A stretch of 32,000 nt of DNA from Rhodobacter capsulatus SB 1003 (GTDB lineage: Bacteria > Pseudomonadota > Alphaproteobacteria > Rhodobacterales > Rhodobacteraceae), in assembly GCF_000021865.1 (NCBI RefSeq), contig NC_014034.1, positions 2,250,001 to 2,282,000 on the forward strand, in the 5' to 3' direction. The notes below the pieces were generated by a model, which was not told the DNA's origin, did no database searches, and saw only the letters and a program-made list of their open reading frames with translations. The translations under genes and the position numbers were made by a program. Position 1 is the stretch's first letter. Every line of letters starts with the position of its first letter. Shown here piece after piece: positions 5,700-10,770 of this stretch.

Positions 5700-5745
5700 G
5701 GAGGAGGATCAGAAAAGGCCCCAGTGGGGCGTTTTCCCGACGACA
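5700..5745 (-). repeat. Hairpin mini-insertion, family C (TCGTCGGG - stem-loop - CTGATCCTCCTC)
   Basis: The stem is GAAAAGGCCCC-AGT-GGGGCGTTTTC (5712-5736). The reverse complement shares both flanks with the copy at 10040-10083. It interrupts OrfB between AMIED and PSFGYRTVAWLLG. Confidence 0.7.
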
Positions 5746-5790
5746 CCCTCGTTCGGCTACCGCACCGTGGCGTGGTTGCTCGGGTGCAAC

Positions 5791-5833
5791 AGTGAGGCCC
5801 CGAACGCCATTGGTCCGAGTGAGCGGGCCGAAC
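5791..5833 (+). repeat. Hairpin mini-insertion, family A (core CGCCATTGGTYCRAG)
   Basis: AGTGAG-GCCCC-GAA-CGCCATTGGTCCGAG-TGAGC-GGGCC-GAAC. It sits at the frame break between AWLLGCN and TVQRIFQIKGW. Confidence 0.75.
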
Positions 5834-6353
5834 GACGGTGCAGCGGATCTTTCAGATCAAGGGCTGGCAGGTGCGCAAGCGCGCCATCGGCATGCGGCCG
5901 CGGATCGAGGCGGTGCCTTCGGTCGCCACCGCACCGAACGAGCGCTGGTCGACGGATCAGGCGCGGGTCTGGACCGGCAAGGACGGCTGGGCGTCGCTCG
6001 CCTTGGTGATCGATTGCCACAGGCGCGAACTCCTGAGCTGGCACCTGTCGCGCTCCGGCAAGGCCACGACCGCCAGCGCCGCGCCTGAACATGCCCTGAT
6101 CCGCCGGTTCGGAACGCTTGGCCGGGTCAACCGGGCGTTCCTGCTGCGGTCTGACAATGGTCTGATTTTTACCAGTCGCCACTTCACGGCTCTGGTGCGC
6201 AGCTATGGCCTGAAACAGGAGTTCATCACCCCGCATTGCCCGCAACAAAACGGCATGGTGGAGCGCGTCATCCGGACGCTCAAGGCGCAATGCATTCACC
6301 GCCACCGCTTCGAGAGCATCCAGCACGCCAACCGCGTCATCGGCGACTGGATC

Positions 6354-6394
6354 GTTCGGCCGCTCTCTCGGACCCATGGCGATCGCGGCCTCAC
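6354..6394 (-). repeat. Hairpin mini-insertion, family A
   Basis: The reverse complement is GTGA-GGCCGC-GAT-CGCCATGGGTCCGAG-AGA-GCGGCC-GAAC. It sits at the frame break after VIGDWI in OrfB. Confidence 0.75.
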
Positions 6395-6651
6395 TCAACA
6401 ACCACCGCCGCCCTCATCAGGCCCTTGCCGGGCGACGCCTGTCGAGGCATTCAGATTAGCGGCTTAACTTGAGCAGATTCAGATGGGGCAATACACGCTC
6501 GGCATGTTGCCCGCCACGGCCCGGTGCTTAGGTGAAGGCCACCCCAGGCGGCGCCGTGCCGCCCCAAGGGCGGTCGTCGCGGGCCAGCGCCCAGAAGTAT
6601 CCGGTTTTGGTTTTCCTGGCCCCCGGATCGAGCACCGGGGCACGCGTGTTC

Positions 6652-6695
6652 TTCGGGGCTTACGCGGCCCCATCAGGGCCACGGTCCCCTCGAAC
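6652..6695 (+). repeat. Hairpin mini-insertion, family B (TCGGGGCTTACGCGGCCCC...)
   Basis: TTCGGGGCTTACGCGGCCCCATCAGGGCCACGGTCCCCTCGAAC. It sits at the frame break after ...STKLFM in TnpC. Confidence 0.7.
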
Positions 6696-6973
6696 TCCAT
6701 GAAGAGCTTGGTTGACCGCTTCAGATCGGCAATCAACGCGTCAAACACCGGCCGGAGTTCAAAGGCAGCCCGGCCGACCCAATCGGCCAGTGTGGAGCGG
6801 TCGAGATCGATGTCCTGCCGGGCGTAGATCTGCGCCTGGCGATACAATGGCAGGTGATCGGCGTATTTCGAGACCAGCACATGGGCAACCAGGGCCTCAC
6901 TTGGCAGGCCCCCCGGGATCAGCCGATCCGGGGCGGGCGCCTGCACCACGCCATCGGTGCAGGACCGGCAGGC

Positions 6974-7014
6974 GTTCGGGCCCTCCTTCGAACCAATGGC
7001 AGTCAGGCCCTCAC
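6974..7014 (-). repeat. Hairpin mini-insertion, family A
   Basis: The reverse complement is GTGA-GGGCC-TGACT-GCCATTGGTTCGAAG-GA-GGGCCC-GAAC. Removing it restores RRPK(Y)ACRSC in TnpC. Confidence 0.8.
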
Positions 7015-7952: not shown

Positions 7953-8000
7953 CGATCGGCTGCGTCGCCACCATGATCCGCACCCGGTTCGAAGGAAAGA

Positions 8001-8222
8001 TCATGTCCCGGCGACCAGGGCGCGCACGACAGCGGCAATTCGCTCGACCGAAGCACCGGGTTCCAACCGGACGATGACCGCCCCCATCACGATCTCGGGG
8101 CCGGAGTTGCTCCCCGGCTGCGGAACATCGTTCTGCGGTGCCACCATCAGCGCCGCGAATTCCTCAGGATCTTCGGGGGCGGGCAAAACCAGCCGCCCCT
8201 GCCGGGCAAGTGTGTGCCACGA
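8001..8222 (-). pseudogene. IS66 TnpA (Orf1), C-terminal fragment
   Basis: ...WHTLARQGRLVLPAPEDPEEFAALMVAP...IVMGAVIVRLEPGASVERIAAVVRALVAGT matches the usual TnpA C-terminus. The N-terminus was removed by the IS407-like end at 8223. Confidence 0.7.
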
Positions 8223-8248
8223 TGACCTGCCCCCCGGTCGTCCCTCAG

Positions 8249-8596
8249 TCATAACGAGAGTCCTTGGGGTTGATAGTGGTCGGTTTCGGGTTGGGCAAGC
8301 GCGCCGGGCGCGGAGCCCTCAGATTGCTCAAGCGCTCGGCGCGCTTCTGCCGGGGTCTGATTGCCCAGCGAGGAATGCGGCCTGATGTGGTTGTAGTCGT
8401 AGCGCCACAAGGCCAAGGTGCGCCGGGCATCGGCGAGGCTGTCGAAGATCTCCTCGTTGAGGCATTCGTCGCGTAGACTGCCGTTGAAGCTCTCGATGAA
8501 GCCGTTTTGCTGCGGCTTGCCGGGGTCGATGTAGTGCCACTCCACCTTGTTGACGTTCGCCCATTTCAGGATGGCCTTGCTGGTAAACTCGGTGCC
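8249..8596 (-). pseudogene. IS407-group OrfB, C-terminal part (split by the IS110 insertion)
   Basis: [78 protein letters not shown] (rve domain with the DDE glutamate context). Confidence 0.85.
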
Positions 8597-8734
8597 ATAG
8601 CATGTTGGTAATGACGCGCCGTTGAAGGTTATGGCCGTCTGCGCAGCCTCCAAAATTGCGCGAGCCAGGCGGCCATAACCAGGGCTCAGGTCTCTATGGT
8701 GGTTTTGCGAACCACACCACAGAGGAGACCGGCT

Positions 8735-10018
8735 ATGGCCAAGGTTGAGCATACTTCGGATGCCCGTGTTCTGGTAGGCATCGACATTTCCAAACACCGG
8801 CACGAGGTGCTGATTGCCGTCCCGGGCAAGACGCGGCGCCGCCGGATGACGGTGCTGAACACCGCCGAGGATTATCGCCGTCTGATCGCTGCTTTGCTTG
8901 ATTATGGCCTACCGGTCACCATCGGCTTCGAGGCGACGGGCAACTACCACCGGGCGCTGATGTTCGCCCTCGGGGCCGCGGGATTCGATCTGAAGCTCGT
9001 CTCTTCCGTCGCTCTCGCCCGCACGCGAGAAGCGTTGCACAACAGCTGGGACAAGAACGATCCCAAGGATGCGCAGGTCATCCTGCGGATGCTGGAGATC
9101 GGGGCAGTTCAAGTCTTTCACGACCCGCTGGTCGTCGGCACTTGCGACATCCAGGAACTGTCAAAGACCTACGAGATGGTCGCGCGGTCGAAGACAGAAC
9201 TGTGGCATCGTATCCTGACCCATTACCTGCCCCTGTATTTTCCCGAGGCGGACCGGTTCCATCGCAGTTCTCGTGGAGACTGGTTCTTGGCGTTACTTGA
9301 GGCCTTTCCATCTCCTTACATGATCACCGCCATGGACAAGGACGCCTTCATAGAGGCTGCCTGGCCGGTGATTGGTCGCCGCGTCGCCAAGGCGGCGCTA
9401 TTGGCGGATATCTACGAGACATCAAAGACTTCCGTGGGTTTGCCCGTCGCGCCAGACTCCGATGCAATCCGGATGTTCCGTCTCGTTTTGGCGCAGGGAC
9501 GCAGCCTTGTTCAGCAGCGCAACGCCATTGAGGACCGTGCGACAGAGCTGCTGGCCGACCATCCAGATTATCAACTGCTGCGCACGATACCCGGGATCGG
9601 GCCTGTCAATGCGCTGGCCGTTCTGGCCGAAGCCGGTGATCTGCGCCGCTTTCGCCATCACCGCCAGTTTCTGAAGTTCTGCGGCATGGACCTGGCGACG
9701 GTGCAATCCGGTGTGTTCCGCGGACGAAGCAAGATCTCGAAGTATGGCAACGCCCGCCTGCGTCGCACACTCTGGCTGGCCAGTCAGGCCGCCGTGCTAA
9801 AGCCCGCCAACAGCTTCCGCGACAAGTTCGAGCGATACATCGCGCAGGACCGGCACAACCCGGATCTTCGGCGCAAGGCCTATACTGCCATCGCCGCCAA
9901 GATGGCGCGCACCATTCACGCCGTGATCAAGTCCGGCGAACCCTATCGCCCCTTCTTCGAGGGGGCGAGCCCAGGCGGAAGGACCCCTCTCTGTAGAGCC
10001 GTGGAGGCAGCTTCCTGA
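8735..10018 (+). CDS. IS110-family DEDD transposase (recombinase)
   Basis: MAKVEH...[27 protein letters not shown] and [12 protein letters not shown] form the DEDD/RuvC-like N-terminal domain. [22 protein letters not shown]...[20 protein letters not shown] is the C-terminal Tnp domain. The ATG at 8735 is preferred over the upstream start at 8696. Confidence 0.9.
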
Positions 10019-10272
10019 CCTCGTAGATAATGTTCGCCATCGTCGGGGAAACGATCCCCCGGATCGTTCCCTGATCCTCCTCTGTCCGCTTGGGATTTCG
10101 GATCTCGTCTTGAGGACGGTGAGGGCGGCAATCAGGCCGACCCTGTATTTGCTATGGAAGAGACCACTTCTTGACGGCGGAGCCCGCCTGGGCAACTATT
10201 CAACAGGTATCCGGTCGCTCGGATGCCCCGTGATCTGATGCCTCAAACGGCAAATCGTTCCCAACATAGGAC
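10019..10272 (+). ncRNA. Candidate IS110/IS1111-type guide (bridge / seek) RNA region in the 3' noncoding end
   Basis: The call rests on position only. A 254-nt structured noncoding segment lies downstream of the transposase, as in the IS1111 subgroup. It contains TGCTATGG, which matches the reverse complement of the left-end junction (catGCTATGGcacc). It also contains a family C hairpin at 10040-10083. Confidence 0.3.
10040..10083 (+). repeat. Hairpin element, family C
   Basis: TCGTCGGG-GAAACGATCC-CCC-GGATCGTTCC-CTGATCCTCCTC. Both flanks are shared with the reverse complement of 5700-5745. The stems differ but stay complementary. Confidence 0.65.
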
Positions 10273-10770
10273 GTTGTCAGAAACGATGCAGGCGGGTTTT
10301 CCATAGATCCGGACCAAGGCGTCCAATTCGCGTGCGACCCGTGCGCCGGAGATGCTGGTGTCGGCAATCAGGGCGAGGTTTTCGCGGCAGCAGTCGTCGT
10401 TCACGGCGAGGATGCGGAACTTTCGGCAGGCCCCGAACGTGTCGGACATCGAGCCATGGGAACGCCACCGGTCCGAGTGACCATGGCGAGGGTCCAGCGA
10501 CCCGCGCTGGTTCGGCCGCAGCGGCACCGGCATTGGTGTGCGGCTGCCACGTGCCCGTTTGCGAGCACGACGGCGTCGCACCGACAGGCCTTCTTCCCGG
10601 TAAATCCGGTAGAGCCCTCCGCCCTACAAACGATCCCCCGGATCGTTTGCTTGACGGGCTACGATTTCGTTCATGATCATGCCCTTGCGCTCGAGCAGGA
10701 TGCCGACGCGCCGATAGCCGAAGCGACGGCGCTTCTCGACGATCTCGTGCATCGCCTCACGGATTTCCGG
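10273..10770 (-). pseudogene. IS407-group OrfB, N-terminal/middle part, lacking its first ~55 codons and broken by a hairpin insertion
   Basis: PEIREAMHEIVEKRRRFGYRRVGILLERKGMIMN / LYRIYREEGLSVRRRRARKRARGSRTPMPVPLRPNQR.SLD...SDTFGACRKFRILAVNDDCCRENLALIADTSISGARVARELDALVRIYGKPACIVSDN. Confidence 0.85.
10615..10668. repeat. Hairpin insertion related to family C (same stem-loop core, different flanks)
   Basis: It carries the perfect 10-bp stem CAAACGATCC-CCC-GGATCGTTTG (10627-10649). It replaces about 3 codons between GMIMN and LYRIYREEG and introduces a TAG. It shares AACGATCCCCCGGATCGTT with 10050-10068. Confidence 0.65.

Follow-up and report, generated by a model that had tools for sequence, protein, structure and literature searches.

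A structured mini-element of about 47 nt in insertion sequences of Rhodobacter capsulatus and its probable mobility

The stretch of DNA analysed here, referred to as the window, covers 32,000 nt of Rhodobacter capsulatus SB 1003 (contig NC_014034.1, positions 2,250,001 to 2,282,000 of the forward strand). Three hosts derived from insertion sequences (IS) lie in it, a decayed IS3-family orfB, an IS110-family element whose transposase matches the Pfam families DEDD_Tnp_IS110 and Transposase_20, and an IS407-like orfB fragment, and each of them contains a small hairpin (Table 1). The hairpins of the first two hosts belong to one family, here called Family C, which is probably a structure-defined, non-autonomous mobile element of about 47 nt, of the same kind as repetitive extragenic palindromic (REP) sequences and Rickettsia palindromic elements (RPEs). 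It replaces 4–5 bases of its target at the compared sites, and its copy in the IS110 element is a secondary insertion. No earlier description of it in Rhodobacter or Paracoccus was found in the literature searched.

Table 1. Coordinates of the mini-elements and of their hosts in the window
Feature	Position	Strand	Basis and details
Family C element, IS3 copy	5699..5745	-	43-nt core 5701-5743, closing dinucleotides TG/CA; model score 66.1 bits
Family C element, IS110 copy	10038..10084	+	core 10040-10082, closing dinucleotides CA/TG; model score 72.5 bits
Decayed IS3-family orfB, host of the first copy	5529..6467	+	open reading frame fragments; homologous IS3 copies in congeners
IS110-family element, host of the second copy	8590..10299	+	transposase 8696-10018, followed by a 281-nt structured 3' end
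Sister mini-element	10616..10664	-	21-23-nt hairpin 10627-10649 with different arms; starts TCGTAGCC on the minus strand
IS407-like (IS3-family) orfB fragment, host of the third-site element	10243..10676	-	open reading frame reading; homologous copies

Arms, stems and fold of Family C

The cores of both copies begin with TCGTCGGG and end with CTGATCCTCCTC, and the stems between these ends differ, each being self-complementary; the two hairpin sequences read exactly as given in the first-pass annotation (reverse complement of 5700-5745, and 10040-10083). In the window the pattern TCGTCGGG-N20-32-TGATCCTCCTC has two matches, whereas 100 shuffles predict 0.00. With no more than two mismatches allowed, 19 of 27 Rhodobacter genomes contain the arm pattern, and the richest of them has 33 copies; a reversed-pattern control gave no match in the 27 genomes. 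The shared flanks and compensating stems that had been pointed out thus define a real family. The genome-wide search that the same annotation had called for was carried out on the 3.74-Mb and 133-kb replicons (3.87 Mb together, 66.6% G+C) and yields five copies of the arm pattern in three contexts: the IS110 3' end (two copies), an IS3-like orfB (two, the second in a truncated IS3 copy with the same insertion at genome positions 3099609-3100432) and an IS5-like transposase gene (one). Three different compensating stems are present, one per context. Between contexts the homology ends no more than 2–3 nt outside the 43-nt core and nothing else is held in common; therefore, the identity of the flanks does not come from a larger shared IS segment, the alternative origin that had been raised. 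When the IS110 DNA is searched against congeners, mainly isolated matches of 43–49 nt appear, corresponding to the hairpin alone, and no larger element with Family C ends was found, the homology ending at about 47–49 nt.

A set of 61 distinct copies with 6-nt flanks was used to study covariation and to build a covariance model, which detects two further relatives in the R. capsulatus genome, located between convergent open reading frames (ORFs), the classical REP position. These 61 copies share a nested fold with an inner stem of 10–11 bp, a 5-bp outer helix and two covarying closing pairs. Read from 5' to 3', the element starts with two variable closing bases, TC, a 5-nt arm (GTCGG, GGCGG, GCCGG or GACGG), G, the 10-bp stem and a 3-nt loop; its 3' half comprises C, an unpaired TGAT, the complementary 5-nt arm, TC and two bases complementary to the first two. 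The two TC motifs stand opposite each other as a loop between the closing pairs and the outer helix, and TGAT is a bulge. The segments initially regarded as mere flanks instead pair with each other and covary: left bases 3–7 pair with right bases 6–10, and covariation of this outer helix is seen both among subfamilies and in other families of alphaproteobacteria (GGCGG/CCGCC, GCCGG/CCGGC, GACGG/CCGTC, AGCGG/CCGCT). The IS-borne Rhodobacter subfamily has GTCGG/CCTCC, with two pyrimidine mismatches. Position -2/+2 is paired in 57 of the 61 copies (AU 32, GC 13, UA 6, CG 5, GU 1) and position -1/+1 in 42. As both the outer helix and the closing pairs covary, the unit is about 47 nt long. The stems vary widely yet remain complementary (for example AACAGTCC, AACGATCC, AACGGTCC, AACAGCGC, AATTGATCC and GATCCTTCC), with 94.5% of the inner-stem cells paired and changes on both sides at nine of the 11 pairs. 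The covariation score of 0.378 compares with 0.100 in shuffles (none of 500 reaches the observed value), and sliding the partners gives 0.092 at most.

It had been proposed that these hairpins resemble intrinsic terminators. This reading fails for the family as a whole, since only one of the three window copies (5718-5730) passes a simple terminator scan and whole subfamilies, those with GCATCCTTCC-type stems (GGAAGG), lack a T-tract; judged by sequence, a GC-rich stem followed by a T-run is not a family-wide feature. In the IS110 copy a mismatch removes the T-run, a loss that would avoid terminating the 3' RNA of that element. Mimicry of the 16S rRNA 3' end (helix 45 plus the anti-Shine-Dalgarno tail) was also considered and rejected, the alignment to the organism's own 16S tail being no better than that of 7–10% of shuffles.

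Filled and empty sites

The claim that the copies are insertions placed within genes is borne out by eleven comparisons of filled with empty sites, which took in IS5-family and IS3-family sites, the IS110 of the window and a different IS110. At these sites 4–5 target bases are exchanged for 47–49 with no target-site duplication, which places the element outside the miniature inverted-repeat transposable elements, defined by terminal inverted repeats of a parent IS and by such a duplication. The net gain is +42, +43 or +45 nt, so that some insertions are in frame and others break the gene. At the ten tallied sites, C or G precedes the exchanged patch and a pyrimidine follows it, giving a target of the form 5'-S/N4-5/Y, beyond which no motif was seen by eye among the compared sites. 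Insertion is found in either orientation relative to the host DNA. Family C is mobile or recently mobile, with an unusual footprint in which a patch of the target is replaced. The closing dinucleotides were considered as a target duplication or as copies of the target and rejected, as they are inverted, not direct, and bear no relation to the replaced 4-mer.

The cleanest pair comes from the different IS110, filled in Paracoccus aminovorans and empty in P. yeei, with flanks of about 58 nt and about 64 nt that are 100% identical. In this pair GATG is exchanged for CAA, the core and ATA, with a gain of 45 nt, and the annotated, uninterrupted transposase of 358 aa on P. aminovorans plasmid IV (1331-2407) reads through the insert in frame. 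In that protein the element amounts to a 15-residue in-frame insert, ...MM-YEEGQKTVRGTVFPTIG-GRAS.... The window IS3 copy sits antisense in its orfB, between ...MIED and PSFGYR; the empty counterpart in a congener reads AAAT, so that 43 nt are gained and the frame is shifted. On direct reading of the sequence, translational bypassing was rejected at two sites: here, no pair of matching take-off and landing codons would restore the frame, and at the IS5-like site a stop follows the junction but the downstream frame is not in register with the candidate landing codon. The IS5 locus also contains a second mini-family, which likewise exchanges 4 bases.

In the IS110 element, the copy follows the transposase stop by 19 nt and is located in the non-coding 3' end. 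The ends of this IS110 were set by comparing its two copies in the genome, together with plasmid orthologues from Rhizobium rosettiformans, Cereibacter azotoformans, Paracoccus sanguinis and Peteryoungia desertarenae, which are 78–91% identical over the whole element. In these four orthologues, 74–91% identical in the comparison at this site, the 3' end is almost invariant but the hairpin is absent: they have GGCCT where the window has CCA, the core and TG, that is, 5 nt against 48. Therefore, the IS110 copy is a secondary insertion. The first-pass annotation had asked whether 10040-10083 is always present and whether it is native to a guide RNA or a separate insertion; it is missing from the IS110 orthologues of four other genera, and the sequence comparison identifies it as a later intruder in the 3' end that is not native to the guide-RNA region. 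The five sequences predict a conserved multi-helix fold for this end, with little covariation because they are so alike, and the hairpin is placed at the top of a conserved 13-bp helix, where one or two pairs are disturbed. This IS110 therefore offers a foreign hairpin in a 3' RNA domain, seemingly tolerated, which is relevant to work on IS110 guide RNAs.

The genome has this IS110 at two different loci, both times with the insertion, so that the IS110 apparently moved after it had gained the hairpin, although gene conversion between the two copies could also account for this. The second copy (genome 1053666-1094661, outside the window) is interrupted after the equivalent of window 9887: a 39.3-kb insert follows, and its end matches Rhodobacter phage RcapMu (39,283 bp) with 100% identity. 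The seven bases of window 9881-9887 are found on both sides of this RcapMu-like insert.

Spread, known relatives and possible modes of movement

Beyond Rhodobacter, the 47-nt element used as a BLAST query finds 36 plasmid records, 22 of them from Paracoccus and others, some Rhizobiales among them, from Phaeobacter, Rhodovulum, Tritonibacter, Cereibacter, Leisingera, Neorhizobium, Brucella pituitosa and Allorhizobium. With one genome sampled per family, the covariance model gives strong matches in five of 150 other alphaproteobacterial families, where the arms again covary and the closings are of the CGT...ACC type. High conservation combined with patchy spread suggests that Family C travels horizontally with IS elements and plasmids. 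The host genes that Pfam names are mostly transposase genes (IS66 orf2, IS66 DDE, IS3 rve, IS5 DDE_Tnp_1, IS110), and four unrelated IS families share an identical core; a LacI-type gene has one copy upstream of it. At 10 of the 13 sites with a known gene strand the element is antisense to the host gene, no more than a trend. The TCGTCGGG subfamily is strongly biased towards IS elements, and the source of this bias could be targeting, or tolerance plus hitch-hiking. As regards annotation, many "frameshifted" or oddly long transposase genes of Rhodobacterales are intact genes with an intruder of about 45 nt.

Several known repeats resemble Family C in kind. CGTC-type REPs of alphaproteobacteria, which lack a dedicated transposase, have been described as families with 8–9 bp stems, 4–5 nt loops, a CCA tail, an unpaired terminal CGTC tag (or TGTC/CCTC) and mostly a head-to-head dimer layout; RPE-4 and RPE-6 have been placed among them, and Rhodobacter is not mentioned (Di Nocera, De Gregorio & Rocco 2013, PMC3733652). 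Like them, Family C is a small alphaproteobacterial palindrome; it has a 5' tag that recalls their unpaired one, CGTC lying within TCGTCGGG; A/T pairs often start the stem, subfamilies differ in stem, loop and tail, some copies are inside ORFs, and no dedicated transposase is known for either. In contrast, the Family C stem has 10–11 bp, the loop has 3 nt and a 12-nt 3' arm pairs with the 5' arm; copies are single or tandem, and their host sites are mostly IS genes. The tag itself, TCG[TGCA]CGGG, varies at the third base of its CGTC part: CGTC is found in the Rhodobacter IS-borne subfamily and CGGC, CGCC or CGAC in others, the variable base being paired, and covarying, with the 3' arm. Family C is therefore akin to the CGTC REPs but falls outside their measured stem, loop, tail and dimer layout. 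RPEs are likewise palindromic mini-elements in protein-coding genes, sometimes in frame and with no known transposase. They are about 100–150 bp long and occur in housekeeping genes, whereas Family C has about 47 nt, is mostly in transposase genes and shifts the frame in many insertions. A comparison with Rfam, which took in the three copies of the window and seven related loci of the genome, produced sub-threshold matches only, among them RF02604 (Brucella small RNA CI153), with 19.0 and 17.7 bits against a threshold of 137. Its consensus holds a near-copy of the element (the outer pairs, GGAAAUCAGUCC-ACU-GGACUGAUUUC and then UGAUCC), but the match covers a quarter of the model (positions 23-73 of 214). 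Most likely, the Brucella locus contains a copy of the same repeat, and the match does not identify the window element with that small RNA.

It is proposed that Family C inserts in either orientation and replaces 4–5 target bases without duplication, that the Rhodobacter subfamily with arms TCGTCGGG and CCTCCTC is mostly found in insertion sequences, and that the inserted copy would then be carried passively when the IS copies itself or changes replicon. The folded single strand would be recognised by a trans-acting enzyme other than the REP-associated tyrosine transposase (RAYT); the conserved arms and the TGAT bulge may provide the recognition surface, and the stems would be free to vary provided that pairing is kept. 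Recognition of a folded strand by an enzyme is preferred because the core has exact ends, the arms hardly change in diverging hosts and the closing pairs covary. It is highly improbable, and largely refuted, that this enzyme is a RAYT (an IS200-like Y1 transposase) acting on a classical REP or REPIN. A hairpin with a conserved CGTC-containing 5' tag, and the extragenic copies between convergent genes, would agree with it, but PF01797 has no match in the 27 Rhodobacter genomes while six of 14 control genomes are positive, there is no GTAG tag, and no inverted dimers (the REPIN layout) or head-to-head dimers were seen among the copies, which are singletons or head-to-tail tandems. The likeness to the REPIN and REP-RAYT systems of Pseudomonas and E. 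coli is thus limited to being short, structurally constrained hairpin repeats that behave as non-autonomous mobile DNA, and Family C differs in lacking a RAYT gene, the GTAG tag and the inverted-dimer unit. The idea that the hairpins are native IS modules (terminators, regulatory hairpins or part of an IS110 guide RNA) could appeal to the position of the IS110 copy in a structured 3' end where a guide RNA is expected, and to some terminator-like copies. It is refuted by the empty sites, since neither the four IS110 orthologues nor the intact IS3 and IS5 relatives have the element; the identical core in unrelated IS families and the broken reading frame in several hosts also stand against it.

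The main rival is an enzyme-free origin, in which the hairpin stalls replication or sits at breaks and is copied by template switching or captured by end joining, with small target deletions. This origin is considered unlikely, although it fits the variable junctions better than the enzyme does. In its favour, the junctions are imprecise (2–3 closing bases on each side, 4–5 target bases lost, +42 to +45 nt), the C/G before the patch and the pyrimidine after it at the ten sites resemble 1-nt microhomology, the 27 Rhodobacter genomes lack a RAYT, and the published CGTC-type REPs are also without a cognate transposase (PMC3733652). Against it, every copy has exact boundaries of the 43-nt core, the arms hardly vary in host IS that diverge by 15–28%, the same position has been struck in diverged IS lineages, and the covarying closing pairs point to a defined folded substrate. 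The proposal of a mobile element moved by an enzyme meets difficulties of its own. No mobilising enzyme was found for Family C, the 27 Rhodobacter genomes gave no Y1 transposase, and no de novo event is seen in the R. capsulatus genome, where three old insertions together with IS duplication account for all five copies. Where diverged IS lineages have a copy at one and the same site, it could go back to a single ancient insertion maintained by selection or gene conversion and not to repeated hits on a specific site. A net insertion length of +42 to +45 is also unusual for a precise transposase. As for the preference for IS elements, several flanking ORFs in Rhodobacter contexts have no Pfam match, the two related copies in R. 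capsulatus lie between convergent ORFs, and in the 33-copy genome a subfamily belongs to a composite repeat of about 115 nt that lies between genes, at times in tandem; the bias may therefore reflect tolerance and hitch-hiking and not targeting.

The movement of small palindromic repeats without a transposase, such as CGTC REPs and RPEs, is a long-standing puzzle. The sharp footprint of Family C (a covarying fold, no duplication, 4–5 bases replaced and near-identical filled and empty sites) allows the enzyme and template-switch models to be tested, and filled and empty sites are available in culturable Paracoccus and Rhodobacter strains. It is a long shot, but conceivable, that an undescribed structure-specific machinery writes the mini-hairpins of the window, Family C and its sisters alike, turning a 4–5-nt patch into a folded one of about 47 nt with a preference for IS elements. 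If true, the machinery would act as a hyperparasite of IS elements or else serve the host or a plasmid by disabling transposase genes.

The third site and other mini-elements

At the third site, the first-pass annotation correctly described the same hairpin with other flanks: the 19-nt stem-loop 10629-10647 is identical to 10050-10068, and the element interrupts the IS407-like orfB between GMIMN and LYRIYREEG. Only the hairpin fits the Family C model (21.8 bits), and its loop is inverted relative to the tag. The third-site element is a member of a sister family and not of Family C. The same sister element occupies the same codon of IS407-like copies in Paracoccus ferrooxidans pFER4 and in Ruegeria TM1040, the latter with a compensating stem change. 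Gemmobacter and ISPfe1 are without it; the gene there reads ...MNEKKLYRIYREEGL, which gives a net gain of 45 nt. The possibility that the third-site arms define a Rhodobacter family was rejected, as the 27 Rhodobacter genomes contain no second copy of them and their relatives occur only in the homologous Paracoccus and Ruegeria IS copies.

Further observations concern the sites and neighbours of these elements. To the left of the IS110, window 8223-8598 is a C-terminal fragment of an IS3-type orfB, which represents the empty site for a Family C insertion found in another Rhodobacter species. In Paracoccus yeei pTT13-1 (343/344), the last base of a Family C copy is exactly where an IS256-family element starts, and a sister plasmid has the same locus without the IS256-family element; the Family C hairpin may itself be an IS target. 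The composite repeat of the 33-copy congener has the arms TCGGCGGG and CCGCCTC beside a GGGGGCCAGCCCCC hairpin, and some 42-nt head-to-tail tandems occur. Other mini-hairpin families are found in the same IS genes (minus strand; query 21-68 and 358-399; window about 10771-10818). One mini-element of 42 nt, which starts with TTCGCCATTGG, replaces GTGT at its site, and another of 48 nt, with the arms TCGATGGG ... CCCATCTC, is nested in the same way as Family C.

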